Below are positions 1 through 20,000 of a DNA stretch of 20,000 nucleotides, one piece after another (the stretch's first letter is position 1; each line of letters opens with the position of its first letter). The notes under the pieces are model-generated. The model saw nothing but the letters and a program-made list of their open reading frames with translations, was not told the origin of the DNA and ran no database searches. The stretch comes from an uncultured virus (IMG/VR IMGVR_UViG_3300008117_000029) (lineage: Duplodnaviria > Heunggongvirae > Uroviricota > Caudoviricetes): the IMG/VR virus record IMGVR_UViG_3300008117_000029, positions 117,795-137,794 of that record; one strand, given 5' to 3'. The position numbers were made by a program, and so were the translations under genes.

Positions 1-1820
1 ATTCTAACGTTGTAGGACCAACAACGTTCAGTCAAAATGGAACGTCTAATGGTAAACCAAGATGGACAAGTAGTAATTCACAGAACATTGTGTGGAAAGG
101 AACAAGATGGGAACTTGTTGGTTCAGATTTGATAACACCAATAAACCCTGTGGGGGGAGGTATTTTTGCGTCCTCAACCACTTCATTACCACCTTTAGGT
201 GGTTGGAGTTTACTTGGTGGAACACAAACTTATACTATAAATGTAACTTTAGGTTCTTGTCCTACAATAATACCACTTCAAGTGACAACAACAAAACAAG
301 ATGCGTCTTGCAACAACCAAACGAACTGTGATGGTTCAATAACGGTTAGTGCGAGATTTGGATTAGCACCATATCAATATTCGATTAATAACGGGGTATC
401 ATATCAAACCTCAAATATTTTTACAAATCTTTGCCCGAACACATACAATATTAGAGTTATAGATGCCGCGAATAATATAGTTAATCAATCGGTTCAAATA
501 AGTTCAGTGGGAAGTCCACAAACATATCAAATTAATATTATAACACAACCACAATTAAACACTGAGGTATCTTCAAATAATATTTCAACGAAAACAACAT
601 ATTTTTATGTTACTTCGGTTCCGCCTATACCTAATGGAGTTGTGGTTAATTTCAATTTGACAACATCATCTATCAAGACATTCAATGGACCAGGAACAGG
701 AACTTGTGTAGACAACTTTACTATTCTACAAAATGGTTCAACAAAGACACCTTTCTCCACAGACATAGATACTGTTATTGGAAGTAGACCAAACTGTAAT
801 CCCGAGACACAAAGAATTGATACTGAGACTGACCAATATTCGTTGGAACTCTCAAATTTTAGCACTGTTTCAGGTTCTACTACTTCGATATTAACAATAA
901 CCGATGGTCAAGTTGGAGCTCAGTCCAACTGCACAACTAATCTACAACAGACAATTTCTTTTCAAGTTTCTGATGTAGTCATCAAAGGATGCACTTGTTG
1001 TTCAGCGGTAGGTGATACAGAAAAAACACAGGTGAATAACAACTCAATCACCTATCAAGGTCAGGTTGATACACCTGAATGTGTAACATGTCAAGGTGTT
1101 ATTCAAAGTGGTAACATTTATCTCAACATGAATCAATTAGTTGGAGGATTAATTTGTTCAGGACCAAATAAGGTGGGTTGTTTCCAAAATTTCAGATATA
1201 GCCCTACTGGTGGTGTTCTTACAATTGATTCAGGACTATCCACATATCCGTGTGGTATATCCCCAAATAATAATGTTCAATACATGCAGGCAAACTTCCA
1301 AACACCAACAAGCGACAATTATTATGTTGAGGTTAAAGCAATGCTGAATGACGTTGAAGTTGGCTCGGGTATTTTCAACGGATTCTGTTCTGCGGGAATA
1401 AATGAAAGTGTTAGTGTTGTTATGTATAACCCGATTAATCTTGTTGCAGGTGATGTGTTCAAGATGGTTTATAATAGTGATGGTGGAAGTATTGTTTGTA
1501 ATCCTGTGACAAGTTTGATTGTGACACCAACTACTAATTTGGGTGAACCCGCAGTGGACATAGTAATTACTACGCAAAACATTGTGACAATTGATACTAG
1601 TTTTTCGATTCAGATTGAGACGAGTAACTATGGGGTATTTTATAAAACCGTAACAATAACAAGTGGAAATTCTTCGGGTAATATGATAGACAACGTTTCA
1701 GGAAGTCCAGGACCTGACCCAACAATAGTTGCTTATTGTATTGACAGCGTAGATAATTCTCTTATCTCTTGTTCATCAAAACAATGTTCAAACGCGAGCT
1801 GTAAATGTGCACAGGATTAA
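1..1820 (+). CDS. Large Thr/Ser/Asn/Cys-rich virion or adhesin-like protein with an SprB-like repeat (5' partial)
   Basis: The frame of ORF 90..1820 is open from position 3 (SNVVGPTTFSQNG...), so the start lies upstream of the window. Segment DGSITVSARFGLAPYQYSINNG..QTSNIFTNLCPNTYNIRVIDA matches the SprB-repeat pattern. Composition is beta-rich and the neighbour is a tail-like gene. Confidence 0.65.
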   Translation, partial: SNVVGPTTFSQNGTSNGKPRWTSSNSQNIVWKGTRWELVGSDLITPINPVGGGIFASSTTSLPPLGGWSLLGGTQTYTINVTLGSCPTIIPLQVTTTKQDASCNNQTNCDGSITVSARFGLAPYQYSINNGVSYQTSNIFTNLCPNTYNIRVIDAANNIVNQSVQISSVGSPQTYQINIITQPQLNTEVSSNNISTKTTYFYVTSVPPIPNGVVVNFNLTTSSIKTFNGPGTGTCVDNFTILQNGSTKTPFSTDIDTVIGSRPNCNPETQRIDTETDQYSLELSNFSTVSGSTTSILTITDGQVGAQSNCTTNLQQTISFQVSDVVIKGCTCCSAVGDTEKTQVNNNSITYQGQVDTPECVTCQGVIQSGNIYLNMNQLVGGLICSGPNKVGCFQNFRYSPTGGVLTIDSGLSTYPCGISPNNNVQYMQANFQTPTSDNYYVEVKAMLNDVEVGSGIFNGFCSAGINESVSVVMYNPINLVAGDVFKMVYNSDGGSIVCNPVTSLIVTPTTNLGEPAVDIVITTQNIVTIDTSFSIQIETSNYGVFYKTVTITSGNSSGNMIDNVSGSPGPDPTIVAYCIDSVDNSLISCSSKQCSNASCKCAQD

Positions 1821-1838
1821 TAAAAAAAGGATGACAAA

Positions 1839-1845
1839 TATTTAT
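1839..1845 (+). promoter_or_regulatory. TATTTAT motif, candidate phage late promoter
   Basis: Lies in the 30-nt gap, 5 nt before ATG 1851. The same motif occurs in the gaps at 15469 and 19858. Confidence 0.4.
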
Positions 1846-1850
1846 TCGTA

Positions 1851-4094
1851 ATGGCTTATATAATTAAAAATACTTCGGGTCTAATTAACACAAGATTAAC
1901 TGACGTTGGTCGTAGAAAGATATCACAAGGGAATTTCAACATTTCTTATTTCCAAATAGGGGATAGTGAAGTTAATTATCAGGCCGTTCCTAACTATAAT
2001 CAAACTAATAATAACATTTTGATGCCTGATTTCAATGCTCAAAATGACACAGGTTCCCCTCAGTCCAACAAAGAAAATGTGAAATATCCTTACTATGTTC
2101 AGGGTGGTATCGGTAACACATACGGAATACCTTACATGGATTCTACATTTCAAGAAGTTTATAATTCTGCTGGTGAAAAAGGATTTTTCATGACGGGAGG
2201 AACTCAAGGTAGTTGGACGGCACAAACTTCATCTGCATATACAATAACTTCTAACTATTGGGTTGCACAAGATACGCTCACAGGTCAAACAACGATAGAC
2301 ATCGAATTAGATACAAACCCACTTACACTCGAGCCATCATCAGGAACACCCTCAATAGGTGATTTTGTTACATTAATACTCGGAGTAGGACTTACAGGTT
2401 TTGTAGGTAACTATCCTGTTTTCACATATAAAATTCAAAACATAAGCCCTTCAACAGGAACCTCTGGAACAACTCCATGGACACTTACCTTAGATAGAAG
2501 TGTTCCAGATTTAAGTTCTTTTTCATTATCAGGAGAATATGCAAGAGTTCTGATATATCCTTCAGGTATGACTGTTCTTTATGATTTCATAACACCAGCA
2601 CCTTATTGGCAGACTGACACTATTAATTTTGAATCACCATGTGATGTTTCAAACCGTGAAAATACTTTAATTTGGAACATGAATATTCCTTGGTCAGAAA
2701 GTCCTGCTGGTCTTTTCAGTAACGCTTATGAAGATTATACAAAATACGGTTCAGTAACTTACATCGGGACTAAAGAATATTTGGGATATCAAGAGCCTTC
2801 AGGTCAAACCGATACAAGTCAAGTTTTTTATTACAATTCGTTTGATGAGAAAGTAGTTGTTAGACCCCAAGACCAAAAAGCAATTGCAATCATACACTAC
2901 ACTAATCAAGATATTGACCATGTTTATGGCGAGAAGTTTTCAACTATTCCTTATGACCCACAGAACCCTTCGAATCAAACAGGTTTAGCGAGACACCTTA
3001 AGGTTACAATACCTACTTTGATGTGGCATAAGTCGACAGGAAACACAATTGGTCAAACATTCTTTATCGACCCACCAGGTTATGATTTATGTAAACCATA
3101 CTATATCAAATCAACCAAAAACATTGATATGAACGACCCTGGTATTCGTTATTATCATCTTTGGGATACAAATCCTGATAGTAATGGTAATTTGAATAGA
3201 ATTGGCAAGGTTTTCCCTGATTCACAGACCATTGTAATTGACGATGAGGAGGTAATAGCGGCTATGTCTTATAAGGCTAATAGAAACTGGACTCTATCAG
3301 CACCTAAACTTTCTTATTTGGCACCTAATACTTGTTTCACGAACAACTCAACCGCCACAGGTTTACTTACTGCTGATACACAAACACTTTGGGTAACCTA
3401 TAGATTCAACAATACAGGATTTACTGATTCATTACACTGTAATTATTATTCGAAAATTGTTGGACCTTCAACAGGTTGCACAGACACAAGTCAAAATGTT
3501 GCTGTCAGATTCGGACCAGAGTTTCAATTTTTGAATCAACCTTCACCTTCTTCTACGGCTATTAATCTGACAGGATATTGTGCAAACTCATTGATGATTC
3601 TTTGTCAAATGGTTTCAGGTGACACTAGACCAAGTCCAACTGATTGGAAATACATTGATGTTACAGACCAAATATCTGGTTCATCGGTTAATGGATATAT
3701 TACAATGTCAGGATTGACAGGCACAACATTCCAAATAGATTTGGCAACGTATCAAAGTGCAGTTACAAACAGTGATATATATAACCTCGCCTCTTACATA
3801 GACATTCCAACAAACAATCAAACAGATTATTTGAATTTTGGTGATGAGTATTACTTCTATGGTAATTTCACAACAGATATTTCGGCAACAATATATGAGA
3901 TGAGATACTTGATAAATTTGGGAAGAAATCAATTCACTAACACTTCTAACCCAACATGGACAAGTGGAACTACTTCATATGTTACCGAAATTGGTCTTTA
4001 CGATTCCAATAAAGACCTTATTGTTATATCTAAGCTACAGTCTCCCGAATTGAGACAAGGTATTCAACAATACGTAGTGAAATTAGATTTTTAA
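1851..4094 (+). CDS. Phage structural protein, baseplate or tail-collar-fibre-like
   Basis: 747 aa. N-terminal LTDVGRRKI...F.I..FQIGDSE and C-terminal VTEIGLYD..DLIVISKL..P motifs resemble the two halves of a tail-collar/baseplate domain, around a long T/S/G/N-rich insert. Confidence 0.6.
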   Translation: MAYIIKNTSGLINTRLTDVGRRKISQGNFNISYFQIGDSEVNYQAVPNYNQTNNNILMPDFNAQNDTGSPQSNKENVKYPYYVQGGIGNTYGIPYMDSTFQEVYNSAGEKGFFMTGGTQGSWTAQTSSAYTITSNYWVAQDTLTGQTTIDIELDTNPLTLEPSSGTPSIGDFVTLILGVGLTGFVGNYPVFTYKIQNISPSTGTSGTTPWTLTLDRSVPDLSSFSLSGEYARVLIYPSGMTVLYDFITPAPYWQTDTINFESPCDVSNRENTLIWNMNIPWSESPAGLFSNAYEDYTKYGSVTYIGTKEYLGYQEPSGQTDTSQVFYYNSFDEKVVVRPQDQKAIAIIHYTNQDIDHVYGEKFSTIPYDPQNPSNQTGLARHLKVTIPTLMWHKSTGNTIGQTFFIDPPGYDLCKPYYIKSTKNIDMNDPGIRYYHLWDTNPDSNGNLNRIGKVFPDSQTIVIDDEEVIAAMSYKANRNWTLSAPKLSYLAPNTCFTNNSTATGLLTADTQTLWVTYRFNNTGFTDSLHCNYYSKIVGPSTGCTDTSQNVAVRFGPEFQFLNQPSPSSTAINLTGYCANSLMILCQMVSGDTRPSPTDWKYIDVTDQISGSSVNGYITMSGLTGTTFQIDLATYQSAVTNSDIYNLASYIDIPTNNQTDYLNFGDEYYFYGNFTTDISATIYEMRYLINLGRNQFTNTSNPTWTSGTTSYVTEIGLYDSNKDLIVISKLQSPELRQGIQQYVVKLDF

Positions 4095-4095
4095 T

Positions 4096-4698
4096 ATGGC
4101 TAAAAATATTGTTAAAGACTCCCCTAAGATTTTAGGATTGGATGTGTCCACCAAAACTATTGGATGGGCTTTGTTTGATATTGAATCAAAAAATTTATTA
4201 GAACTTACACATATTTCACCGGTCCCAAAACCAAAAAGTGAAAATAAAATCGAGGAACTCATTCTCAAATCGGGCATTTTTAGGAACAAACTTTCTGAAT
4301 ATGTAGGATTAGGAATCCAAAATGTCATTATCGAGGAACCACTACTTAATTCAAACAACGTGTATACGGTTGGAACTCTTATGAGGTTCAACACTTTGAT
4401 TTGTAAAGAAGTGTATGATATCTTAGGAGTAGTTCCTGAATTTATGTCTACTTACAACTCAAGAAAATTTGCATTCCCACACTTAGTTCAGAAAAATGAT
4501 AAAGGTAAATTTGTATTGTTCGGGGGTTTTCCTAAAGACATAGATAAAAAAGTTATCATATGGGAGTTGATTGCGAAAAGAGAACCACAAATTACTTGGT
4601 TATACACAAAAAACAACACCCTTAAAAAAGAAAACTTCGACCAAACAGACGCTTACTGTGCAGCACTAGGTTACATGAAGATGAAAGAAATTTGGTGA
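4096..4698 (+). CDS. RuvC-like (RNase H fold) Holliday junction resolvase
   Basis: ILGLDVSTKTIGWA (catalytic D), VIIEEP (E) and FDQTDA (DxxD) in RuvC order; 200 aa. Confidence 0.75.
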   Translation: MAKNIVKDSPKILGLDVSTKTIGWALFDIESKNLLELTHISPVPKPKSENKIEELILKSGIFRNKLSEYVGLGIQNVIIEEPLLNSNNVYTVGTLMRFNTLICKEVYDILGVVPEFMSTYNSRKFAFPHLVQKNDKGKFVLFGGFPKDIDKKVIIWELIAKREPQITWLYTKNNTLKKENFDQTDAYCAALGYMKMKEIW

Positions 4699-4722
4699 TT
4701 TAAAGAACAAAGCATATCTTTG
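4691..4722 (+). promoter_or_regulatory. Bacteroidetes-type sigma-70 promoter (-33 TTTG, -7 TAnnTTTG)
   Basis: TTTG at 4691-4694, 20-nt spacer, TATCTTTG at 4715-4722, then 4 nt to ATG 4727. Confidence 0.75.
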
Positions 4723-4726
4723 TGGT

Positions 4727-5095
4727 ATGCACATGTTGAGAACACCACACACAAAGTCAATTTCCAAAGTTGTAAAAAAATTTGGTAACAAGATACCCAT
4801 ATCCAACTCACAACTCAAAGGAACTTTTACAATCAAAAACTACCGTTCATACTCTCACCTCGAAGAAGTAGATATAATATTCGAAGGGCAAATTTTCGTT
4901 CACTATAATAGGAAAAAAGATTGGTATAGTTCTTCAGTCATGACTGACGTTTTTCCAAATGGGGGAAGAGTTTCAAAAATTAAAGTCAATCGATTCATAA
5001 GACGAAACATTTTTTTTGATGTTAAAACTTACTTAAAGTATTTCGATATTGAAATACCCTATTATGATTTGATTAAGAAAATTATTTGGAAATGA
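4727..5095 (+). CDS. Hypothetical basic protein
   Basis: 122-aa ORF filling the gap, with its own promoter and an ATGA overlap with the next ORF. Confidence 0.7.
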   Translation: MHMLRTPHTKSISKVVKKFGNKIPISNSQLKGTFTIKNYRSYSHLEEVDIIFEGQIFVHYNRKKDWYSSSVMTDVFPNGGRVSKIKVNRFIRRNIFFDVKTYLKYFDIEIPYYDLIKKIIWK

Positions 5096-7014: not shown

Positions 7015-7027
7015 AAATAAAAACTGT

Positions 7028-9404: not shown

Positions 9405-11783
9405 ATGAAATGGGATTTGTTCAATCCAAAACCAGAATTTAACTACAAAGAGATGTCACACAAACTCGATACTTCAGCTTTGGATAACCCTTACATTCAA
9501 GTGATTTGGGAAGACTCTTCTGAAAATTTTACACAAGAAAGAATCAAGTCTGTTAAGCAATACTTCATGAAGAAGTATGCCTCAACAAACGTAAATGTAA
9601 TTACCAAAGTAAAAACAACAGACGATACCCAGCAAACTATAGATGTTACCATGAATATCATGGACCAAAACTATCTCAGAGAGTTGGTCAGAAATTTCTT
9701 GGAATCTAAAAACCAACATCAGTATTTTGACCAAGTCATGAATATCGACTTAGCGGTTGAAAATAGAATGTTGATAAATGAGGTCGAAGTAACCCCCTTC
9801 AAGAGATGGTATATCAAAAAGATAGAGTTTAGTAACTTTCTTTCTTACGGGGAAAATCAAGTAATTGATTTTGACAAGTGTAATGGTATCACAGTAGTTG
9901 AATCTGACCCACCAAACTTTGGAGGAAAAACTGTATTGACGGTAGATTTATTATTGTTCTTATTCTTTAACTCAACAACCAAAACACAGAAAGCAGAGGA
10001 AATCTTTAACCGTTTTTCTGACAAAAACAAAGTAACCGTTAGAGGTGAAATTGTTATTGATGGTGAGGAATATGTTATTGCAAGACAAATTGAAAGAAAA
10101 AAGGCTAAGTCAGGAGAATGGAATGTTAAAACTGAATTGGAGTTTTTCAAAAAACTCGCTGATGGACAACTTCAAAACTTCACTGGTGAACAAAGGAGAG
10201 AGACTGAGGACTTCATCAAAAAATCGATAGGTAATATCGATGACTTTTTGATGACCATTGTGACTACCGCTTCGAATTTAGAGGATTTATTGGAGGCAAA
10301 GCCAACAGCACGTGGACAAGTGTTGAGTAGATTTTTGGGGCTCGAATTCCTGAAGAAAAAAGAAGAAACAGGTAAAGAAATTTATTCTGACTTTTCTAAA
10401 GGTATGTTGTCCAATGTATATAATACTGAAACTTTGAAGCAAAACAATTCAGAGTCAAATGAAGAAATAAAAGTTCTCGACAGTCAAATTATCGATTCTC
10501 AGGAAAAAATGAAAGATGTTGATAACAGGCTTCAAAAGGGTCAAGATTATAAAGAAAATCTTCTTAAATCCAAGCATAACGACATAGACCAAGAACTTGT
10601 TAGACTAAATCCAAATACTCTCAAGACAGAAATAGAAAACTTCAAAAATTCATCTAAGTCGATTCAAACTCAAATAAACGAAGTTAAGATTATTGAGCCC
10701 AAAGAGTTCTATCATGAAGACCAACACGACGCGGTGAAAGATGTAATCAAATCGAGAAATGGTGAGTTGGTGTTAGCAGAAAATAAAGTTGAAGAAATAC
10801 AAGAATTGATAGAAAAGTATGGGGATGGAATCCAGTGCGAGCACTGCGGAATCAAATTAATGGAGGCATCCCTAACAAAGAAAAAAATAGAACAGTTAGA
10901 AGGATATAAAAAACTTGTCAGGGAATTCAGAAAAGAAATCGGAGATTTAGAAAAAAAAGAACAGTCTTTCACCCAACTGAAAAAAGACTTTGATGAGTAT
11001 GAAAGAAACAAACTCATAAAAGAAAAGTATGAATTGTCTTTGGAGTCTACGAAACTTAAACTCGAGCAAGCTCAAGACAAACTGACAAGATATGAAGAAG
11101 TTCAAGATAAGATTAAAAAGAACAATGATATTGATGCTCAGTTAGTGAAGGCGGGAATGAGGATAGACGATTTAATTAATGAGAAGAGAGATTACGAAAG
11201 AACTATAACATCTAACCAACTTCAAATAAAAAACCTCAAACAACAAATCGATAAGAATCTCGAAATGATTCAAACAATTACCGAGGAGTTTGAAAGGGAA
11301 AAAATATATAAGATATATTTGGAGGTATTTGGTAAAAATGGTATCTCGAAAATTATAATGAAGACGATGATGCCGTTAATCAATCAAGAACTTCAAAGAC
11401 TCCTCATGGATTCTTGTTATTTCAATCTTGAAATAAGAATTAACGATAAAAATGAGGTAGAATTCATGATGATTGATAATTCAACTGGAATCGAAAAACC
11501 AATGACATCAGGGTCTGGTTATGAAAGAACGATAGCTGCTATGGCACTAAGAGCCGTGTTGTCAAAAGTGTGTTCATTACCAAAACCAAACATTATTGTA
11601 TGGGACGAAGTTTTTGGTAAGATTTCAAACGAAAACTTAGAAATGGTAGGGGAGTTTTTTTCTAAGATGAGAGAATACTTCGAGAAGATTTTTGTTATCA
11701 CGCACAATCCTTTGGTAAACAATTGGGCTAATAATGTGGTTAGAATTTCAAAAACGGAAAATATTTCTAAAGTTTCTCAATAA
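9405..11783 (+). CDS. sbcC: Rad50/SbcC/T4 gp46-like ATPase with a ~130-aa N-terminal extension
   Basis: IKKIEFSNFLSYG, Walker A-like PPNFGGKT, long coiled coil with central CEHC zinc hook (10836-10847), signature-like SGSGYE, Walker B IIVWDE, H-loop ITHN. Confidence 0.9.
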   Translation: MKWDLFNPKPEFNYKEMSHKLDTSALDNPYIQVIWEDSSENFTQERIKSVKQYFMKKYASTNVNVITKVKTTDDTQQTIDVTMNIMDQNYLRELVRNFLESKNQHQYFDQVMNIDLAVENRMLINEVEVTPFKRWYIKKIEFSNFLSYGENQVIDFDKCNGITVVESDPPNFGGKTVLTVDLLLFLFFNSTTKTQKAEEIFNRFSDKNKVTVRGEIVIDGEEYVIARQIERKKAKSGEWNVKTELEFFKKLADGQLQNFTGEQRRETEDFIKKSIGNIDDFLMTIVTTASNLEDLLEAKPTARGQVLSRFLGLEFLKKKEETGKEIYSDFSKGMLSNVYNTETLKQNNSESNEEIKVLDSQIIDSQEKMKDVDNRLQKGQDYKENLLKSKHNDIDQELVRLNPNTLKTEIENFKNSSKSIQTQINEVKIIEPKEFYHEDQHDAVKDVIKSRNGELVLAENKVEEIQELIEKYGDGIQCEHCGIKLMEASLTKKKIEQLEGYKKLVREFRKEIGDLEKKEQSFTQLKKDFDEYERNKLIKEKYELSLESTKLKLEQAQDKLTRYEEVQDKIKKNNDIDAQLVKAGMRIDDLINEKRDYERTITSNQLQIKNLKQQIDKNLEMIQTITEEFEREKIYKIYLEVFGKNGISKIIMKTMMPLINQELQRLLMDSCYFNLEIRINDKNEVEFMMIDNSTGIEKPMTSGSGYERTIAAMALRAVLSKVCSLPKPNIIVWDEVFGKISNENLEMVGEFFSKMREYFEKIFVITHNPLVNNWANNVVRISKTENISKVSQ

Positions 11784-11789
11784 AAGCCA

Positions 11790-11797
11790 TACATTTG
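11790..11797 (+). promoter_or_regulatory. Bacteroidetes-type -7 promoter element
   Basis: TACATTTG, then 4 nt to ATG 11802; no clear -33 TTTG. Confidence 0.65.
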
Positions 11798-11801
11798 CGA
11801 T

Positions 11802-12320
11802 ATGGAAAGACAAGGTCACGGTTTTGATTACCAAAGACAACTCTGTGAAAGATATAACCTATCTTCAGATGATAACTACACGGGTATTTGGGATGCCTAT
11901 CGTCAAGATGGAACCCCATGTGTAGTTAAAACCTTCAAACAAAATTCGGAAATTCCCTTGGCCGATATATTCAATAATGTATCGAGAGATAAAGACTTCT
12001 ATTTAATGTATGGTGTTTGGAAAGGTAAAAAATCAAACATTGTTGAAGAAAAAGTTATATTAGTAGACGTTGAAAAATGGAAAGAGTTATTCACTTGGGA
12101 ACACTTCGAAGAACTTAAACATTGGATTAAAAATGTTGTTTCCAATAGTTATGACTACGATACCACTTGGAAGTCTGAAGTAAAAGAGTGGAAAGAAAAG
12201 TGGGGTGAAGAAAGAATCGTTCAACCTAGATTCAAAAGAGACCATAAAACCCAACGTAGAATACAATCTGCGGTTTCTTACAAAAACTTGGAAACTTTTT
12301 TAGATTATGTCAAAAAGTAA
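11802..12320 (+). CDS. Putative type II restriction endonuclease (PD-(D/E)XK-like)
   Basis: 172 aa with QGHGFDYQ helix, WDAY and VVKT in PD-(D/E)XK-like spacing. It overlaps a methyltransferase gene by 14 nt, so the call rests largely on context. Confidence 0.5.
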   Translation: MERQGHGFDYQRQLCERYNLSSDDNYTGIWDAYRQDGTPCVVKTFKQNSEIPLADIFNNVSRDKDFYLMYGVWKGKKSNIVEEKVILVDVEKWKELFTWEHFEELKHWIKNVVSNSYDYDTTWKSEVKEWKEKWGEERIVQPRFKRDHKTQRRIQSAVSYKNLETFLDYVKK

Positions 12321-13077
12321 GTATGGTTTAGACCAATTTTATACAAAATCTGAGGTCGCTCGAAGGTGTTTAGAGACTCTGAATCTAACTGATTATGATA
12401 CAATCATAGAGCCATCGGCAGGAGAGGGTGTTTTTTTTCATTTGGCGGAACACCAAGACAAAATAGCCTACGACATTGAACCTAAGTCTGATGATATAGA
12501 ACAATGTAATTTTTTGACTAAGGATTTAAGTTTCTTGGGGAATCGTAAAGTGCTTTTCTTTGGTAATCCTCCATTTGGGAGAAATTCAAGTCTTGCATTA
12601 AAATTTATAAAAAAGTGTTGTCTTCACGCAGACACAATCGCATTCATATTACCCAAAGGTTTCAAAAAAAGGTCAATGATTGACAAGATTCCTCTCAACT
12701 TTGAGGTTTCATTAATTCAGGATTTAACTGAGGATATTTTTACGTTCGAAGGAAAAGATTTCATGGTCCCATGTGTTTGGGTTATCTTGAAAAAAACCGA
12801 AGTTCTTAGAGAGAAAGAAATAAAACTTTCTCCCACAAAATTTACTTTCACCACAAAACAACATGCGAATTTAGCAATCAGAAGAGTTGGTATCAATGCT
12901 GGAGATGTTTTCACTGATACAGATGTATCAATTACTTCACATTATTTTCTTAGAGTCGAAGACCCTCAAACAGCTCAACGTTTAATATCACAAATTCAAT
13001 TTAGTTCAGGTGATACTACAGGTCCAAGAAGTATACCCAAAAATGAACTTATTATTAAGTTGGACCAAATTTTGTAA
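12307..13077 (+). CDS. Amino (probably N6-adenine) DNA methyltransferase, gamma-type motif order
   Basis: Motif X DQFYT, motif I IIEPSAGEGVF, DIEP, motif IV GNPPFG, IAFILP. Confidence 0.88.
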   Translation: MSKSKYGLDQFYTKSEVARRCLETLNLTDYDTIIEPSAGEGVFFHLAEHQDKIAYDIEPKSDDIEQCNFLTKDLSFLGNRKVLFFGNPPFGRNSSLALKFIKKCCLHADTIAFILPKGFKKRSMIDKIPLNFEVSLIQDLTEDIFTFEGKDFMVPCVWVILKKTEVLREKEIKLSPTKFTFTTKQHANLAIRRVGINAGDVFTDTDVSITSHYFLRVEDPQTAQRLISQIQFSSGDTTGPRSIPKNELIIKLDQIL

Positions 13078-13101
13078 TTGTAAAAATATTCAGTATCATT
13101 G
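13071..13101 (+). promoter_or_regulatory. Bacteroidetes-type sigma-70 promoter
   Basis: TTTG at 13071-13074, 19-nt spacer, TATCATTG at 13094-13101 (one mismatch), then 4 nt to ATG 13106. Confidence 0.65.
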
Positions 13102-13105
13102 CAGC

Positions 13106-13582
13106 ATGCAAATTTTCTTACCATATTCCGATATGAGAAAATCTCTTAAATCCCTCGACAACAAACGTCTCGGTAAACAAAGAGTTGAAACTTATCAAAT
13201 AATATCAGCAATCACCCGTAGGCCTAAGTTAGATGGAACACCATACAAAGGTTGGTTAAACCATCCTTGCACGGTTATGTGGAGAGACTATGTCCCTGCG
13301 TTGAAATTGTATATGAATTATTCAATTGCAGAATGGATTTGTCGAGGATTCAAGAATACGATGAGTTTTGAACAATACATTGAGAATGATGTTATTATAC
13401 CACCATTCATTGGAAACGAAAGATTTCATTCATCTCACCGTGCCAATCTTTTGAAAAAAGAACCTGAATTTTATCAAAAATATGGGTGGTCCGAAGACCC
13501 TTCAGACCCTTACGTATGGTTGGATAATGAAGGTAAATGGTATGAACAACATTCAGGAAAAAAAGGAAGAGTATATCTATGA
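13106..13582 (+). CDS. Pyrimidine-dimer DNA glycosylase / endonuclease V (DenV)-family protein, MSMEG_6728-like
   Basis: MQIFLPY..LDNKRLGKQRVE..Q, GWLNHP..MW, EW..RG, HSSHRANLL.K.P.FY. Start reassigned from 13010 to ATG 13106 using the family N-terminus and the promoter position. Confidence 0.8.
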   Translation: MQIFLPYSDMRKSLKSLDNKRLGKQRVETYQIISAITRRPKLDGTPYKGWLNHPCTVMWRDYVPALKLYMNYSIAEWICRGFKNTMSFEQYIENDVIIPPFIGNERFHSSHRANLLKKEPEFYQKYGWSEDPSDPYVWLDNEGKWYEQHSGKKGRVYL

Positions 13583-14118
13583 AACATTTAACATTCAAGA
13601 AAATAGGGGTTGAACATCACCCAATCAAAGTTTGGAAAACTGACTTAGTTACAGAAGTTGCTATTTATCAAGGCGAACGAGGTCAAAACCCCGAGCTTGA
13701 TTTTGTGGTTAAGTATAAAGAAGAGGGAAAAAGGTTGAGAACCCCATCTCACACACATTGGATAGTTGACTTATTGGTTAAAGGGTCTCATAGTTCAGTT
13801 TTCAAAATGAACTATCTATATAGTTTTGTTAATGACCTCATAAAAATCTACGATGAGTCCGAAAAGTTCTCATCTATTCAAGAAAGAAATACATACGATT
13901 TGAAACACCCACAAGTTATGGGTAATAAACACTCTCAACTTAGGGGTCATGGGTATTATACAGTTGAAACAATTACAGCATTTGTTGAACTTTTTTCAAA
14001 GTGTGAAAAACAATCAGATGATGCTTTTATGTTTCGCGGGCTACTTACTTTGGTAAAAGAGTATTGTGAAGGAAAAAAAGATTTTTATCAAATAGTTGGA
14101 TTATCCAAGAGAGTTTAA
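13579..14118 (+). CDS. Hypothetical protein
   Basis: 179 aa, ATGA-coupled to the upstream gene; motif-like segment RLRTPSHTHWIVDLLVK. Confidence 0.75.
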   Translation: MKHLTFKKIGVEHHPIKVWKTDLVTEVAIYQGERGQNPELDFVVKYKEEGKRLRTPSHTHWIVDLLVKGSHSSVFKMNYLYSFVNDLIKIYDESEKFSSIQERNTYDLKHPQVMGNKHSQLRGHGYYTVETITAFVELFSKCEKQSDDAFMFRGLLTLVKEYCEGKKDFYQIVGLSKRV

Positions 14119-14120
14119 CC

Positions 14121-14128
14121 TATATTTG
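14121..14128 (+). promoter_or_regulatory. Bacteroidetes-type -7 promoter element
   Basis: TATATTTG, then 4 nt to ATG 14133. Confidence 0.7.
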
Positions 14129-14132
14129 CTTT

Positions 14133-14651
14133 ATGAAAAAATACATTTTATCAGTAATTGGTAAATTCGAAAACGAGAAGATGTGTCAAGAGTTAGCACT
14201 ATCATTAACCCCTATTGTTGACTCACCTCACATGAAATTCCAACACACAAACGGTATTTTGATATTCCATTTTGCCTCTGAGGTTGAAAAAAGTGAAATA
14301 TTTGAATACATCCGTGGAATTCTCTATGGTATAACCGAAGCATTTATTCTGACAGAATTACATGACAATATGACATTGTCTATGCCGAAAGAAATAGAAA
14401 GTCATCTTTTAGACTTAGAAAATTCAAGTGATGACGTTGAGATGAATATCGACCTTAATAGAATTAAAAGGAATTTAGATTTCATGGACGAAGAGGAAGA
14501 TGACGATTTTGTGGCATTACTTTTGGGTGAAAAGAATAACCTGTTTCCTAAACCATCCTTAGACCAAATTTTGGACAAGATGATTGACAAAGGGTTTGAA
14601 AATCTTACAGAGTTCGAAAAAGATATATTAAAGAGTTATAGTAAAAATTAA
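14133..14651 (+). CDS. Acidic protein with a C-terminal DUF6576-like helical domain
   Basis: C-terminal LDQILDKMIDKGFENLTEFEKDIL fits the xDxILDKIxxxGxxxLTxxEKxxL pattern; acidic linker DEEEDDD. Confidence 0.6.
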   Translation: MKKYILSVIGKFENEKMCQELALSLTPIVDSPHMKFQHTNGILIFHFASEVEKSEIFEYIRGILYGITEAFILTELHDNMTLSMPKEIESHLLDLENSSDDVEMNIDLNRIKRNLDFMDEEEDDDFVALLLGEKNNLFPKPSLDQILDKMIDKGFENLTEFEKDILKSYSKN

Positions 14652-14654
14652 TCT

Positions 14655-15452
14655 ATGAAGGAAAAAAGTGTAATCCCAATTAATCAGGAAGAAATTAACG
14701 CCTACCTTAAAGAAGTAAGAAAACTTAAGGTAATGACGGTAGAGAGAGAAAGAGAACTTTCTAGAAAAATGTTATCAGGTAGAATCTCAATCCAAGAGAA
14801 GGAAGAAATAAAAAAAGAAATTCTCGAGGGTAACTTAAGGTTTGTGATTACTGTTTCCAAACAATATCAAAACCAAGGGTTAGATTTACCTGACCTTATC
14901 GCTGAAGGTAATTATGGTCTTATGAAAGCGATTGAGAATTTTGATTGGTCAAAAAATCTTAGATTCATATCATACGCTGTGTGGTGGATTAGACAATCCA
15001 TACTTCAATCCTTGAATGAAAATGCTAGAACAATTCGACTACCAGTAAATGTGGTTCAAGAACTACATAAGGCGAAAAAAGAACTTGACAAGGTGGGGAC
15101 TGAACTTCCTGAGAAGTTTCTCAACCTACCATCTATTGTGAACTTGGATAGCCCACTTAACGAAGAGGGAGATACGCTTTTGGATGTTGTTCCAAATCCA
15201 AATGCTGAAAGTGCGGACTCAGGACTTTCTTCAGAGCAAACACTTAAAGATAAATTACTTTCACTTCTCGATGTTCTCGATGAAAGAGAAAAGGTAATCA
15301 TCCAAGATTATTTCGGGTTATCTGGCTCAACAAGAACATTAGAAGATATTGGTAATGACTTTGATTTAACTAAGGAAAGGGTTAGACAAATCAAAGAAAA
15401 AGCCCTCAGAAAACTTAGGAATGAAACGGGTAGTTTGTTCGACTACATGTAA
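14655..15452 (+). CDS. RNA polymerase sigma-70 factor (RpoD-like, Bacteroidetes type; no region 1.1, shortened region 3)
   Basis: Region 1.2 YLKEV; region 2 NLRFVITVSKQYQNQG...DLIAEGN.GL..A...FD...RFISYAVWWIRQSILQ; region 4 TLEDIG..F.LTKERVRQIKEKALRKLR. Confidence 0.93.
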   Translation: MKEKSVIPINQEEINAYLKEVRKLKVMTVERERELSRKMLSGRISIQEKEEIKKEILEGNLRFVITVSKQYQNQGLDLPDLIAEGNYGLMKAIENFDWSKNLRFISYAVWWIRQSILQSLNENARTIRLPVNVVQELHKAKKELDKVGTELPEKFLNLPSIVNLDSPLNEEGDTLLDVVPNPNAESADSGLSSEQTLKDKLLSLLDVLDEREKVIIQDYFGLSGSTRTLEDIGNDFDLTKERVRQIKEKALRKLRNETGSLFDYM

Positions 15453-15459
15453 TTAAAGG

Positions 15460-15497
15460 TAAAGGGTGTATTTATTAGATACACCTTTTATATTTTT
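15460..15497 (+). terminator. Probable intrinsic terminator after the sigma gene
   Basis: Stem AAAGGGTGTAT (15461-15471) pairs with ATACACCTTTT (15479-15489) with one G-U pair, followed by a T-rich tract. Confidence 0.6.
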
Positions 15498-15501
15498 ATG
15501 A

Positions 15502-15540
15502 TATTAAAATTATAAATCTAAGTTGTATTAAAATTATAAA
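15502..15540 (+). repeat. 15-nt direct repeat TATTAAAATTATAAA, two copies
   Basis: Exact copies at 15502-15516 and 15526-15540, directly upstream of ATG 15544. Confidence 0.7.
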
Positions 15541-15543
15541 ATT

Positions 15544-15825
15544 ATGAAAAAATTTATTCAAAACAATTTCACAGTTATCGTATTGGTAATTGCGGTATTA
15601 ACCTTTTTTAAGGGATGTGGAGATTCAAGAGATTTAAGTAGGATTAAATCAGAAATAAGAGCAATAAAAGATTCAACTTATACTAAAACCGAGTTGAATA
15701 AGGAACTTAAGATTTCAGGTCTTGAGGCTGAAAAAAGAATGATTCAAGCGACAGATAGAAAACTTCTTGATGTAAGAAGACAAACTGAAATCGAAGAAGA
15801 AATAAAAAAATTAAATAAAAAATAA
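15544..15825 (+). CDS. Membrane-anchored or lipoprotein-like coiled-coil protein
   Basis: MKK, hydrophobic stretch, FFKGCG, then a charged helical region. Confidence 0.7.
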   Translation: MKKFIQNNFTVIVLVIAVLTFFKGCGDSRDLSRIKSEIRAIKDSTYTKTELNKELKISGLEAEKRMIQATDRKLLDVRRQTEIEEEIKKLNKK

Positions 15826-16544
15826 TGAACTGGATACAAAAAAACTTTAAAACCCTAATATACGTTGCCTTCTTGGTTCCGATTATTACGGTTGCTATTG
15901 TTTCCATTTCTCACGTAACAACTTGGTATGGTATTTCTAATCCATTGAGTTGGTCGATATATCTTTCAATAGGGATTGAAATCGCTGCTTTATCAGCGTT
16001 AGCCGCAATTGCGGCTCAAATGGGTAAAAAAGTATATTTCCCATTCATCATTGTTACGTTGATACAATTCATTGGAAACATATTTTTTGCATATCAATAT
16101 ATTGATATAAACAGCGAATCTTTCAAAGATTGGGTTGATATGGTTGACCCCATCGTTTCATTTTTAGGTGTAGAATCTGGTGACCTCGTTGGACACAAAA
16201 GATTCTTGGCTTTGTTCGCAGGTGGTATGTTACCATTGATATCCTTATCGTTCCTACACATGCTTGTGAAATTCGAAGAGGAAGAAAAAAGAAAACTACC
16301 GGTCAATAATTTCGACTTGGATATAGAAGAATTGAGTAAACAAGCTGGACTGAAAGAGGCCGAAATCGAAAAAGAAAAATTCACTCCAACTGAAGATGAA
16401 TTAAAAAAACTTGAAGAAGAACTGAGGAAACTAAATGAACAAAAGTTTGGAAACCTACAAGAACCAATTGTTTATGATGAAACACCCTCAGTTAAAGAAA
16501 CTAATAATAAAAAGGTATTGAGTTATTTGAGAAGAGATGCTTAA
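15825..16544 (+). CDS. Multi-pass membrane protein (about 4 TM) with a charged C-terminal tail; holin candidate
   Basis: Four hydrophobic segments in aa 12-150 and an E/K-rich tail; overlaps the amidase start. The holin role is inferred from context only. Confidence 0.55.
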   Translation: MNWIQKNFKTLIYVAFLVPIITVAIVSISHVTTWYGISNPLSWSIYLSIGIEIAALSALAAIAAQMGKKVYFPFIIVTLIQFIGNIFFAYQYIDINSESFKDWVDMVDPIVSFLGVESGDLVGHKRFLALFAGGMLPLISLSFLHMLVKFEEEEKRKLPVNNFDLDIEELSKQAGLKEAEIEKEKFTPTEDELKKLEEELRKLNEQKFGNLQEPIVYDETPSVKETNNKKVLSYLRRDA

Positions 16545-17142
16545 AATCCAAAAATACGGAAACTTCAAACCGATTGGGAAACAAAAGAAAAAAAATCAAA
16601 TAATATTATGTCATACTTCAAGGGAGGTCGGGGAATTCCTGGTCTCCCTTAAATTTAGATATAATGGACAATATGATAAAATCCCAAACTACGTTGTAAC
16701 AAGAAAGGGTGAGGTTTTACAACTTCTACCAGAGTTAGGTCATTCGAACATATTTCCTAAGGAACAAATCAATAAGAACTCAGTCATAATATGTCTTGAG
16801 AACCTTGGATGGTTGGAAAAGAAACCATTAACCAATCATTATATTAACTGGATTGGAAGTATTTATAATGACAAGGTTTATGAAAAAAAATGGAGAGACT
16901 ACTTTTTTTGGCAACCTTACACTGACATTCAAATGGAATCAACAGCTGAACTGTGTAAAATGCTAGGAGAGTCGCTTAACATAAAACTGAGGTCAATAGG
17001 TCATAACACAAAAATCGATGGGATTACTGATTGGGAGGGAATAATTTCAAGGAGTAATATCGACACAATGTATACGGACCTAAATCCTTCATTTCAATTC
17101 GAGACCTTACAAAAATATTTTGAAAATGAACAATATGCTTAA
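16537..17142 (+). CDS. N-acetylmuramoyl-L-alanine amidase-like protein (Amidase_2 fold)
   Basis: IILCHT, PNYVVTRKGEVLQLL, NKNSVIICLEN, YTDIQ..S..ELC..L and TDLNPSF in family order. Confidence 0.72.
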   Translation: MLKIQKYGNFKPIGKQKKKNQIILCHTSREVGEFLVSLKFRYNGQYDKIPNYVVTRKGEVLQLLPELGHSNIFPKEQINKNSVIICLENLGWLEKKPLTNHYINWIGSIYNDKVYEKKWRDYFFWQPYTDIQMESTAELCKMLGESLNIKLRSIGHNTKIDGITDWEGIISRSNIDTMYTDLNPSFQFETLQKYFENEQYA

Positions 17143-17701
17143 CGAAGAAAGATACGATGAAATCAAATCTCTTTTGAAAAAATCGAGACTGATATTCGAA
17201 CAAGAGACACAAATCAATGTCGCCAAAGACCTTGAAAAAAGGATTGAAAGAGACAATCAATATGATACTGCGGTTTCTGATGAAGAGAAAGGTGAAAAAC
17301 CAACACCTGAAGACAAAACTCAGAAATATAGAATTTCAGGTGGAATCTTAGCCCTTCATGGTAAGGACAGAAGTGAATTGGATATTACAACAGACGATAA
17401 AGTTGCATTCCAAGAAACCATGGATGAATTCGTAGAAGAGGTTTCTGACCTTGTAGATTTCAATGTCTTGAATGTTTATCAAAATAATGTTGAATGGTCT
17501 GGGAAATTAATTGATGAAGACTTGGAATTTATCTTCACAATTGGGGAAGATAGTGGAATTTATATCAATGGACAAATGGTTAAGGTTGACCAAGAATTTC
17601 TGGATTTAATTAATAAACTTCAACAATTCTACCAAAAATTCAAATCCAAATGGGGTAAAGTTTTGGCGAGTAGAAAGAAAACAAAAGAATCACCAATTTA
17701 A
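17126..17701 (+). CDS. Hypothetical acidic protein, possibly virion/head-associated
   Basis: ORF 17120..17701 opens with TTG; ATG 17126 or 17135 is more likely. Has N-terminal LNE/IFE motifs. Confidence 0.65.
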   Translation: MNNMLNEERYDEIKSLLKKSRLIFEQETQINVAKDLEKRIERDNQYDTAVSDEEKGEKPTPEDKTQKYRISGGILALHGKDRSELDITTDDKVAFQETMDEFVEEVSDLVDFNVLNVYQNNVEWSGKLIDEDLEFIFTIGEDSGIYINGQMVKVDQEFLDLINKLQQFYQKFKSKWGKVLASRKKTKESPI

Positions 17702-17702
17702 T

Positions 17703-18065
17703 ATGATTAGTAAAATTCTAAATTTCTTAAAGAAACATTACATAACAATCCTTAAAGTTATTTTCGGATTGTTCATCCTTTATTATTTAATATTTTTCCT
17801 GACACCAAGGGTCCAAATGGCTGCCGACCAAAAACAACAACTTGATTCACTCAATGTTGTTATTAAGCAACTTCACGAAGATAATTTGAAATTGGAAAAC
17901 AAGATTTCTGATTTCAACAATGAAATTGAAAAAGTAGACCAAACTATCGGCAAAATAAAAAATCAAAAAACAATTGTCAAAGAAATTTATCATGAAAAAA
18001 TTAGCAATATTGATAAGCTTACTTCTCGTGAAGTCGATAGCTTTTTCACAGATAGATACAAGTAA
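17703..18065 (+). CDS. N-terminal TM plus coiled-coil protein (i-spanin/Rz-like architecture)
   Basis: Basic N-terminus, TM VIFGLFILYYLIFFL, about 60-aa coiled coil; its 3' end overlaps the next gene out of frame. Confidence 0.6.
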   Translation: MISKILNFLKKHYITILKVIFGLFILYYLIFFLTPRVQMAADQKQQLDSLNVVIKQLHEDNLKLENKISDFNNEIEKVDQTIGKIKNQKTIVKEIYHEKISNIDKLTSREVDSFFTDRYK

Positions 18066-18402
18066 GACTGAAAAGTGTTTTCCCTTACCTGTGGTTAAGC
18101 AAATAATGAAAGACTTAATAAGTGGAGATTCTGCAAAGGCACAATTGAAACTCACTGAATTCCAACTTATTGAAACCGAGAAAAAAGTAGGACTCAAGGA
18201 CAGCGTTATTACAATTCTTAGAGCAAAAGAAACGAATTATCTCACAATAATTGATTCTGAGAAACAAAAGTTTGATATCATGGAAAGATATTCAAAAAAA
18301 TTAGAATTTGATTTGAAGAAAGAGAAAGTAAAAAGTAAATTCAATTCTATCCTTGGCACAGGTCTGATTGCTGTATTAACGTTCTTTTTAATAACCAAAT
18401 AA
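17992..18402 (+). CDS. Exported coiled-coil protein with signal peptide and C-terminal TM (spanin-partner-like)
   Basis: Likely start ATG 17992: MKKLAILISLLLVKSIAFS/Q, a signal peptidase I-like site followed by Q. C-terminal ILGTGLIAVLTFFLI. Confidence 0.6.
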   Translation: MKKLAILISLLLVKSIAFSQIDTSKTEKCFPLPVVKQIMKDLISGDSAKAQLKLTEFQLIETEKKVGLKDSVITILRAKETNYLTIIDSEKQKFDIMERYSKKLEFDLKKEKVKSKFNSILGTGLIAVLTFFLITK

Positions 18403-18647
18403 TGGCATTTACAAATTCAGAAATAAAAGAAATTGAAACATTAGTCCGCAAGGAGGTTAGAAACTTTATGCAGAATAATACTGTCAAACAATTCGAGGAT
18501 AAACTTCTTGATACAATAAGAAAAGAAATCAAAAAAGGAAAACTCGAAGGTGATATAAAAGATATAACTCTTAGGATGTTCCGTGAATTTTACCAGTTCA
18601 TGTGGACCAACAGAGGTTATTGGGAACCTAGATTGAAAAACGCTTAA
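18402..18647 (+). CDS. Hypothetical helical protein
   Basis: 81 aa; TAATG overlap with the upstream gene. Confidence 0.7.
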   Translation: MAFTNSEIKEIETLVRKEVRNFMQNNTVKQFEDKLLDTIRKEIKKGKLEGDIKDITLRMFREFYQFMWTNRGYWEPRLKNA

Positions 18648-18648
18648 C

Positions 18649-19854
18649 ATGGGATTTAATGCTGCAGAACAATTCAAAAAAGCCATAGACAAGGCTTTCA
18701 CAACACAACCAAATGTAAAGTTGAATTCCTCAACTATGAAAGATGCAACTAGATTGAAACAATCATTTAAAGAAGAGAAACTAGAGGGTGGTAAGGCAGA
18801 TAAAATGAGTTTGGGTGACATTGCTCACAAACACAAGGTTGATGTCAAAAAACTTACACATGAATTTCTTAAAGGAGTCAAAATTGAGACTGAACACACC
18901 AAGGATAAGAACATGGCCAAAGAAATCGCTATGGACCACTTATATGAAGACCCAAAATATTATTCTAAGTTGAGTAAAATAGAAACTAAGGAGGACGATA
19001 AAGTTACCGCAAAAAGACAATTTGCGACAGATTTACAAGCCGATAAAGACTATATCGATTTTAAGAAGAGAGCGAAATACAAACAAGGATATAAGGAGTT
19101 TAACTTCGGTTTACCCAATGTAACGAAAGATGACCCTTACATCAAGAAAAGAAAGTGGGGTAGACCTGGCAAAGAGAAAACGAATGAAAAAGTAGATAAG
19201 GAGTTGAAAGGTAATGATAAAGATATGGTGGACGGAATCATTGAAATTCTGAATCAAATTAATGATAAAGGAAATAAGATGAAGGTTGCTAAAAACATGG
19301 TTCAAAAATTTAAGAAAGAAGGTGTAAAGTTTGATTACGATGACTTTTTTCAAAAGTGTGGGTTGGGAAAAAAAATTGAAAATAAGGAGGCGACAGGGTC
19401 AGGTTCATCAGGGGCATTTGCGGGTCCTATTGCATTTAAAGACAGTGATTTTCTAAGAAAGAGTTTTGCTGAAACTCCAAAACTTAAAGAGGGTATTGCA
19501 GTAAATGCAATGGGCCTCAATGGTATTGAAAAGGCTGAAACAAAAGAAGCGACAGGTTCGGGTTCAGTTGGTGGTTATGAAACACCTGCAATGTGGGCTA
19601 AATCCACAAAGAAAAAAGATTGGGGGCCAAGTAGGAAAACCCAAGTCCCTGGTGGTTCATTTGTAAAAGTAAAAAAGAAATGCACGAAATTCCCATATTG
19701 TAATCAGGGTGACATAAATGCTTTGAAAATTACGAAAAATGAGTCTGTAAAAGAAGCAATAAAATCAATTTCCAAAAAATTCAAAATCAGTGAAAATGTT
19801 ATTATCACAATATTGGAGCACGAGTTTGAGAAAATTAATAAAAGACCAAAATAA
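18649..19854 (+). CDS. Lys/Glu-rich mosaic protein with a DUF5661-like domain; possible head-internal protein
   Basis: KGVKIETEHTKD...AKEIAMDHLYEDPKYYSKL segment, two KEATGSGS.G repeats, and CTKFPYCNQG. Confidence 0.65.
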   Translation: MGFNAAEQFKKAIDKAFTTQPNVKLNSSTMKDATRLKQSFKEEKLEGGKADKMSLGDIAHKHKVDVKKLTHEFLKGVKIETEHTKDKNMAKEIAMDHLYEDPKYYSKLSKIETKEDDKVTAKRQFATDLQADKDYIDFKKRAKYKQGYKEFNFGLPNVTKDDPYIKKRKWGRPGKEKTNEKVDKELKGNDKDMVDGIIEILNQINDKGNKMKVAKNMVQKFKKEGVKFDYDDFFQKCGLGKKIENKEATGSGSSGAFAGPIAFKDSDFLRKSFAETPKLKEGIAVNAMGLNGIEKAETKEATGSGSVGGYETPAMWAKSTKKKDWGPSRKTQVPGGSFVKVKKKCTKFPYCNQGDINALKITKNESVKEAIKSISKKFKISENVIITILEHEFEKINKRPK

Positions 19855-19857
19855 AGA

Positions 19858-19865
19858 TATTTATA
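19858..19865 (+). promoter_or_regulatory. TATTTATA motif, candidate phage late promoter
   Basis: In the 26-nt gap before ATG 19881. Confidence 0.4.
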
Positions 19866-19880
19866 TTAAAAACACACATA

Positions 19881-20000
19881 ATGGACAAGTTTCAAAAACA
19901 TATTGACAATCTTATTTCTAAAATCCTCAATGAGGAAATCGAGAGCAAGGTTAAACAAATTACCGAAGAAAAAGGTGAATGGCAGGAAATTGAAGTTGAG
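19881..20000 (+). CDS. Hypothetical protein (3' partial; absent from the ORF track)
   Basis: MDKFQKHIDNLISKILNEEIESKVKQITEEKGEWQEIEVE, open to the window end, with an A-rich leader. Confidence 0.7.
   Translation, partial: MDKFQKHIDNLISKILNEEIESKVKQITEEKGEWQEIEVE

Follow-up and report, generated by a model that had tools for sequence, protein, structure and literature searches.

Among the closest described systems is Staphylococcus phage K, a large virulent myovirus that is reported to contain no GATC, an absence read as escape from Sau3A (PMC6532042). As set out by Rusinov et al. 2018, site avoidance concerns orthodox Type II sites in non-temperate double-stranded DNA phages, and complete or near-complete site elimination is given there for about a tenth of viral genomes (PMC6286503). 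Rusinov et al. 2015 describe that genomes long holding separate orthodox Type II nuclease and methylase genes lose the cognate word, and that avoidance without a system can be the trace of a lost system (PMC4687349). For the word GTAC, the HpyAXII methylase of Helicobacter pylori and the CviQI methylase of chlorella virus NY-2A, the latter virus-encoded, are reported to give GTm6AC (PMC2588503, PMC4357717), GTAC is described as scarce in several genomes with (old) GTAC systems (PMC2588503), and R.PabI is described as a GTAC enzyme that is a base-excising glycosylase (PMC4357717). Here, we analyse a stretch of 20,000 bases (positions 117,795 to 137,794 of the IMG/VR virus record IMGVR_UViG_3300008117_000029; hereafter the window, with positions counted from its first base) that belongs to an uncultured tailed phage, has neither GATC nor GTAC, and carries a pair of overlapping genes for a nuclease-like and a methylase-like protein at 11802-13077.

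As reported for phage K (PMC6532042), GATC is missing altogether from a large myovirus; unlike in phage K, the genome is one of 321 kb, GTAC is also depleted, the phage has a nuclease/methylase cassette of its own, and its host is placed by gene content only. Whereas the survey in PMC6286503 is described as pairing phages with known hosts and enzymes, we instead compared ~230 related loci, and it is through this comparison that the two words are seen to have been lost at different times. The account in PMC4687349 deals with cellular genomes, whereas we describe carriage by a virus, for which association alone points to the cognate word. Our preferred reading, to which we assign a probability of roughly 0.6, is that both words were purged by silent restriction-site avoidance, with the GATC purge driven by hosts and the GTAC purge tied to an orthodox Type II restriction-modification cassette of the phage itself.

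Counts of GATC and GTAC in the window and the genome

The window (33.9% G+C) contains 0 GATC and 0 GTAC on either strand. Base composition predicts 61.0 copies of each word, and a maximal-order Markov model predicts 61.1 copies of GATC and 40.3 of GTAC; the Poisson probabilities of finding none are 10^-26 and 10^-17, respectively. GATC was present in all 200 of 200 dinucleotide-preserving shuffles (mean 68.8, standard deviation 8.4), and 0 of 200 such shuffles reached zero for GTAC (mean 39.4, standard deviation 6.1). The initial annotation had called both words absent from 20 kb after a reading by eye, and the counts (0/61 and 0/40; observed/expected, as for all word counts given with a slash below) confirm that reading. 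Its estimate of expected copies, roughly 50–60 of each, was made from base composition. The nine other 4-base palindromes that it listed as present do occur (GGCC 8, CCGG 4, AGCT 19, TCGA 82, CATG 47, TGCA 44, ACGT 30, CTAG 11 and GCGC 1), and words that differ from the two missing ones by a single letter reach or exceed their expected counts, for example GATA (146/115) and GTAA (115/85).

The window forms the final 20 kb of a 137,794-base virus record that is itself a fragment. Because 17.65–17.69 kb of the window is found at 100% identity in seven other public viral records, the window is not an assembly accident. One of these seven, G001, is a genome of 321,283 bases with a 200-base terminal repeat that is rated 100% complete by CheckV; it spans our loci L101-L117 and contains the whole 137.8-kb record, equivalent to ~43% of its length, at 99.6–99.9% identity. 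The virus is a T4-like tailed jumbo phage of 321 kb with genes for a gp23-type capsid protein, a gp20-type portal, a large terminase, a sheath protein, gp25, baseplate J, gp32 and a family B polymerase. The nearest named phages, Flavobacterium phage immuto, Microcystis phage Mel-JY01 and Rhodothermus phage RM378, are distant (37–45% capsid identity), a near-identity DNA search of the phage collection returned no close relative, and a tRNA scan returned none in the window or in the 137.8-kb record.

GATC is absent from the 137.8-kb record (0/440) and from complete G001 (0/1013). GTAC is found at 28/299 in the record and 87/658 in G001, CCGG at 40/144 and 77/312, and CTAG at 127/218 and 232/456, respectively. 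GTAC is, therefore, ~eight-fold depleted genome-wide, and the window is one of its clean stretches: total absence is genome-wide for GATC and holds in the window only for GTAC. The earlier statement that the phage stays site-free fails for GTAC, of which these 87 sites are left in G001.

We defined genes by a simple longest-open-reading-frame rule, giving 395 open reading frames (ORFs) that cover 94% of G001, and compared codon use in site-forming contexts with codon use elsewhere. In contexts that would create GATC, Asp GAT is used in 0 of 538 cases before a codon starting with C (71.6% elsewhere), Ile ATC in 0 of 980 after a codon ending in G (23.1% elsewhere), and Gly GGA in 0 of 373 before TCN (38.6% elsewhere). 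In those that would create GTAC, Val GTA is used in 31 of 935 cases before a codon starting with C (28.1% elsewhere), Tyr TAC in 13 of 441 after a codon ending in G (33.0% elsewhere), and Gly GGT in 11 of 386 before ACN (52.3% elsewhere). Control codons go up in the same contexts. Because the site-forming codons are avoided and the dipeptides concerned stay at 0.88–1.07 of expectation, selection has acted on the DNA word and through almost wholly silent changes.

The residual GTAC sites in G001 are clumped, with an index of dispersion of 3.3 in 5-kb bins, a value that 0 of 10,000 random placements reach. The densest patch lies at G001 120-140 kb, with 21 sites where ~52 are expected, and includes a host-like outer-membrane protein gene with GTAC at 7/14 and GATC at 0/7; nine residual sites lie in one gene that encodes 1433 amino acids, and four lie in the capsid gene. 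The clumping fits DNA gained by exchange after the purge.

Histories of the two losses among relatives

We scored a word as low at a locus if its observed/expected ratio (O/E) was ≤0.2 and applied this threshold to 80 loci around the capsid gene of relatives with 72–94% capsid identity. GATC is low in 66 of 79 of these loci (341/2640 in total) and GTAC in 0 of 80 (1983/2353 in total), and in other capsid relatives TCGA, CCGG or CATG is missing instead. Among complete relatives, G211 (321 kb) has GATC at 0/846 and GTAC at 742/818, and G212 (296 kb; L285-L299) has GATC at 635/932 and GTAC at 694/663. G212 is depleted in TCGA (37/400), CATG (107/733) and AGCT (73/257) and is without all three methylases of the phage, that is, the one in the pair and the two described further below. 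Of 80 viral loci sampled at random, 11 of 79 are low in GATC and 0 of 73 are low in GTAC. The GATC loss is old, widespread in the clade and polymorphic as well as common among environmental viruses; the GTAC loss is specific to the phage's own lineage, and it would be recent. The initial annotation had taken the missing words as the signature of selection by restriction enzymes, and both the synonymous codon choices and the avoidance of other 4-base palindromes by relatives agree with this. We conclude that restriction-site avoidance, with selection by restriction-type enzymes, is supported. Contig numbers indicate that the clade is abundant and uncultured: more than 770 viral contigs have a relative of the capsid gene, and more than 600 have a relative of the D12 methylase that the phage encodes elsewhere in its genome.

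We also note two further patterns of word loss. A sub-lineage of the same clade (L345, L346, L365 and L367) has normal GATC (83/85, 62/68, 69/73 and 74/82) and GTAC that is nearly gone (1/24, 1/19, 0/25 and 1/27), which is the opposite of the pattern in most relatives in the clade. L220, a 14-kb contig from a giant-virus bin, has lost nearly all copies of nine 4-base palindromes at once (GATC 0/65, AGCT 0/32, GCGC 0/32, GGCC 0/22, CTAG 0/15, GTAC 1/28, CCGG 2/15, CATG 5/38 and TGCA 7/40).

The gene pair and the word that it may read

The nuclease-like gene (11802..12320, + strand) encodes a protein of 172 amino acids with a predicted PD-(D/E)xK restriction-endonuclease fold. It overlaps by 14 bases the methylase-like gene on the same strand (12307..13077), which encodes a protein of 256 amino acids that resembles gamma-class N6-adenine methyltransferases and belongs to a virus-dominated family. 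The nuclease-like protein has 288 cluster representatives in a large library; it has no family match in Pfam, PHROGs or NCBIfam and no sequence match among solved structures. Its structural model is confident (mean predicted local distance difference test (pLDDT) score 96.4), and a Foldseek search with this model returned Eco15I-N, DpnI and PvuII at E-values of 3e-4 to 9e-4 and template modelling (TM) scores of 0.32–0.41, with the methyl-directed enzymes NhoI, Eco15I and DpnI as the nearest folds. Within the family, D31 and K43 are conserved, whereas the acidic residue in the middle of the classic motif shows no conservation. Assignment to the PvuII family (PF09225) by sequence was rejected, in that PF09225 matches one of 50 relatives at an E-value of 0.003, below the cut-off, so that the likeness is in fold only; in one Atlas neighbour cluster, 44% of the members carry PF09225. 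DUF6998 is matched weakly by 12 of 50 relatives.

The methylase-like protein contains the motifs DQFYT, EPSAGxG and GNPPFG, and G86-N87-P88-P89-F90-G91 is invariant in an alignment of 41 sequences. Judged by sequence, such motifs typify gamma-class N6-adenine methylases, and both motif I and motif IV are present. The protein matches PHROG 5172 (E-value 2e-49) and PHROG 799, 'DNA methyltransferase' (E-value 2e-10), and in Pfam it has weak RrnaAD matches only. It has 2251 homologues, the named ones of which are all 'hypothetical protein' or 'predicted RNA methylase'. Its structural model (pLDDT 89) resembles KsgA/Erm, M.TaqI and CamA, among others, in fold, and its Atlas neighbours form virus-dominated clusters, part of which carry PF26055 (Mtase_EDM2). 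Given the restriction-endonuclease fold predicted for one product and the N6-adenine methylase motifs of the other, the label of nuclease/methylase pair under which the two genes were initially annotated is a reasonable one. The two domains are fused in the single proteins P0146 and P0174, and in 8 of 69 distant viral carriers of the methylase the two genes are adjacent, in varied orientation.

M.HpyAXII is described as a gamma-class enzyme with N87 as the asparagine of motif IV (PMC2588503), and the window methylase has its own at this position, too, which is a lead and not a test; M.HpyAXII has 331 amino acids versus 256 for the window methylase, and the two were compared by description, not by sequence. 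R.HpyAXII is grouped with R.PabI in the same account (PMC2588503), whereas the nuclease-like protein has a predicted PD-(D/E)xK fold instead.

A close copy of the pair occurs in two lineages, and GTAC is scarce in both (0/38 and 1/37 in loci of ~20 kb); it is not scarce in G211 and G212, the two complete relatives without the pair. For a broader comparison, we used the 69 distant viral carrier loci, in which the methylase is 38–53% identical and many of which are from giant-virus bins, and scored a locus if at least 10 sites were expected. GTAC is the most depleted palindrome in these loci (433/1856 = 0.23), with O/E ≤0.2 in 32 of 59 and ≤0.33 in 45 of 59, and with O/E ≤0.2 in 26 of 47 once near-copies are merged. 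The GTAC-poor carriers span giant-virus contigs (13 of 27 with O/E ≤0.2) and the other contigs (19 of 32) and range from 19 to 60% GC. At the same threshold, the controls low in GTAC were 0 of 73 random viral loci, 0 of 80 loci around the capsid gene of relatives, 6 of 70 loci with the D12 methylase and 0 of 78 Bacteroidota loci (Fisher test of carriers versus the random viral sample, p = 1e-14), and no palindrome other than GTAC tracks the methylase family as closely. A quick tree of the methylase does not split cleanly by GTAC state, with 12 changes versus 15.8 in shuffles. Based on this association, we suggest that the pair most likely reads GTAC.

Many loci with the methylase retain GATC (for example 60/79, 86/109 and 41/39), and G211 has 0 GATC and no pair; therefore, a link between the pair and the loss of GATC is excluded. 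The proposal in the initial annotation that one of the two words is the target of the pair gains indirect support for GTAC, for which 32 of 59 carriers compare with 0 of 73 random loci, and falls for GATC.

In the mechanism that we propose, GATC-directed restriction met in hosts would have driven the old and total loss of GATC. The cassette at 11802-13077 would be an orthodox Type II system reading GTAC, in which the methylase would protect the 87 remaining GTAC sites, while the nuclease, or GTAC nucleases of hosts or rival viruses, would make each leftover site a liability, and this liability would lead to the loss of sites over time. In this scheme, we infer the activity of the two enzymes, their action on DNA, the specificity for GTAC and the identity of the selecting nuclease.

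The pair lies in a variable island (11784..14654, + strand) that also contains a pyrimidine-dimer glycosylase gene (13010-13582) and two ORFs. The island is bordered by two conserved genes identified by Pfam matches, an sbcC-like gene on the left (9405-11783) and a sigma-factor gene on the right (14655-15452), and the gap between these genes is 2.87 kb in the phage, 0.59 kb in G211 and 1.17 kb in G212, the two complete relatives in which the pair was not found. In relatives, the pair was not found near the capsid gene; L085 alone has a methylase homologue there, at 36% identity. The DNA glycosylase gene that follows the methylase gene is of the T4 endonuclease V type (Pfam E-value 6e-22); the GTG start listed for it lies within the methylase gene, giving an overlap of 68 bases, and the real start may be further downstream.

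Host side and weighing of the readings

From gene content, the host is probably a (freshwater) member of the Bacteroidota, and our guess at its family is tentative. The phage has SprB repeats in three proteins, a type-IX-secretion sorting domain in one, and a spanin-like gene. The 80 best genome matches of its CarboxypepD_reg-fused outer-membrane barrel are almost all from Bacteroidota, and the best cellular matches, at 66–69%, are labelled Sediminibacterium or Chitinophaga. We note that the closest copies of the outer-membrane protein gene, at 78–79%, are in L120 and L138, which are binned as Cyanobium and Gammaproteobacteria metagenome-assembled genomes (MAGs); L120 has GATC at 0/19 and may be phage DNA that was sorted into a bacterial MAG.

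Several observations weigh against the reading that hosts drove out GATC and that the pair is a GTAC system. The methylase is found without a nearby nuclease-like gene in 61 of the 69 distant carriers, and 18 of 67 viral carriers keep GTAC. The family of the methylase is present in 6 of 401 genomes of the phylum, and these six Bacteroidota genomes, each with a lone methylase homologue, have chromosomes that are not GTAC-poor (O/E 0.61–0.97). Five relatives (L345, L346, L365, L367 and L369) are GTAC-poor with no pair in their fragments, which are 14–61% complete, so that GTAC loss may arise without the pair. The carriers are also interrelated and share habitats, and the association is not free of common descent. 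Among solved structures, the methylase resembles rRNA adenine methylases only, with weak sequence hits to Erm (E-value 1.5e-4) and KsgA, and 27 of 41 family members match RrnaAD weakly; on account of this weak likeness, RNA could be the substrate. Finally, few genomes of the candidate host family have a recognisable GATC nuclease, the DpnII family being present in 1 of 201 genomes and the MutH/Sau3AI family in 4 of 201. The suggestion in the initial annotation that the host has both specificities is not supported.

Of these observations, the five GTAC-poor relatives, the lone methylases of most distant carriers, the bacterial carriers that are not GTAC-poor and the likeness to rRNA methylases would also be expected if host enzymes had purged both words and the pair, reading some other word or RNA, merely rode along by descent and habitat; the lineage-specific sets of avoided words likewise fit varied host enzymes. 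We regard this alternative as unlikely, though as the most probable one beside our preferred reading. GTAC loss is rare in viruses, as documented by the random loci (0 of 73), the capsid relatives (0 of 80) and the D12 carriers (6 of 70), and yet it occurs in 32 of 59 carriers of one methylase family on giant-virus and phage contigs alike, a family that no other palindrome follows so closely. Moreover, a search for the nuclease-like family gave 0 of 201 genomes in the candidate host family and 1 of 401 in the phylum. In this sole carrier, no methylase of the pair's family lies beside either of its two copies.

A second alternative concerns GATC, the loss of which would reflect not restriction but pressure from GATC methylation, by way of Dam-type regulation or nicking by methyl-directed repair. 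Such pressure has been proposed for enterobacterial phages. G001 encodes two further DNA methylases outside the 137.8-kb record, an N6_N4 (beta-class) methylase that is most like CcrM and a D12 (Dam-class) methylase (L300:2034-2870 = G001 281034-281870) 5.3 kb past the end of the window; G211 has both and G212 neither. The presence of the D12 gene in the phage and of D12 methylases in 77–79 of 201 genomes of the candidate host family would suit this alternative, as would the rarity of recognisable GATC nucleases in that family. However, the four MutH/Sau3AI family matches are all long ORFs with two domains, as in Sau3AI and unlike MutH, and the disappearance of ~1000 GATC sites together with the shortage of CCGG (77/312) and CTAG (232/456) is the usual pattern of restriction. 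The D12 methylase was also rejected as a cause or partner of the GATC loss, which it does not track: among 72 carrier loci (69–87% identity), GATC is at O/E ≤0.2 in 30 and >0.33 in 35 (for example 93/82 and 83/85). We, therefore, consider it improbable that methylation pressure removed GATC.

At an E-value of 0.001, the D12 methylase matched none of the solved Dam enzymes by sequence, and its neighbour of 440 amino acids, considered as a candidate nuclease, is a leucine-rich-repeat protein. It is an observation in its own right that a Dam-class methylase lives in a genome without any GATC. One possibility is that a mix of host strains, some cutting unmethylated and others methylated GATC, would leave total loss as the sole safe state.

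Slightly less probable again is a third alternative, in which the methylase would mark GTAC in host or rival DNA, the nuclease would cut marked sites only, and the phage would survive by shedding the word. That the top fold matches of the nuclease-like protein are methylation-dependent nucleases is consistent with such a weapon, which also predicts that methylase carriers lose the word, in line with the strong association, and the window itself is without GTAC. Against it, the 87 genomic GTAC sites would be self-targets, the single-chain fusions P0146 and P0174 would be self-destructive on any DNA with the word, and, as described in PMC4687349, carriers generally do not avoid the sites of methyl-directed systems. 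Chance, base composition or an assembly artefact behind both losses has a negligible probability and is refuted by the counts, given that all 200 shuffles hold many sites where the Markov model expects 61 and 40, that seven other records have the same sequence and that the codon-context pattern is one of directed avoidance.

Several features of the phage are apart from the question of word loss. The genome encodes ~15 glycosyltransferases (GT2, GT4, GT9, GT10, GT11 and GT25; L001:10639-19238, L002:231-4042 and 16170-19058, and L006:10235-15530) and, beside these, sugar genes for a GDP-sugar dehydratase/epimerase, FkbM-type methyltransferases and a UDP-galactopyranose mutase (L112:11803-12906), a complete glycan-building gene set that is unusual in a phage. 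Also phage-encoded are ribosomal protein bS21, a ClpB-like ATPase, ClpP, DnaJ and Hsp20 as well as an Fe/Mn superoxide dismutase, a SET-domain protein, PPK2, a UvrC-like nuclease and a Y-family polymerase (genes of this set lie at L106:8711-8893, L107:795-2807, L108:7387-8061, L115:2230-3147 and L107:201-668). The G+C content rises to 47–50% at G001 1-5000 and 270001-275000, where long genes for collagen-like repeat proteins of 1623 and 780–874 amino acids with endosialidase-chaperone ends are located, and CTAG exceeds expectation in the first 5 kb of G001 (43/31).

Site avoidance is already known as a kind; here, we add that the two losses differ in age, together with a putative virus-borne restriction-modification family that tracks the GTAC loss. 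With ~1000 expected GATC sites gone from a genome of 321 kb, the phage is among the more extensive examples of this form of evasion, and because the lineage comparison dates the losses differently, a site-loss profile is readable as a history of the enzymes that a lineage met. Of more use as a lead is a small family of methylases, at times paired with or fused to a restriction-fold nuclease, that occurs in phages and giant viruses and whose carriers are GTAC-poor. We speculate, with considerable reserve, that this is a virus-borne GTAC restriction-modification family, comprising a nuclease of PvuII/NhoI fold and an EDM2-like adenine methylase and common to jumbo phages and giant viruses of eukaryotes, the carriers of which have stripped their own GTAC so that the nuclease is usable on host or rival DNA. 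If so, the loss of the word would record the virus's own weapon and not the host's defence. If the pair reads GTAC, a specificity would be assigned to several thousand unnamed proteins, and the avoidance of a genome's own sites, described for cellular genomes, would extend to viruses.

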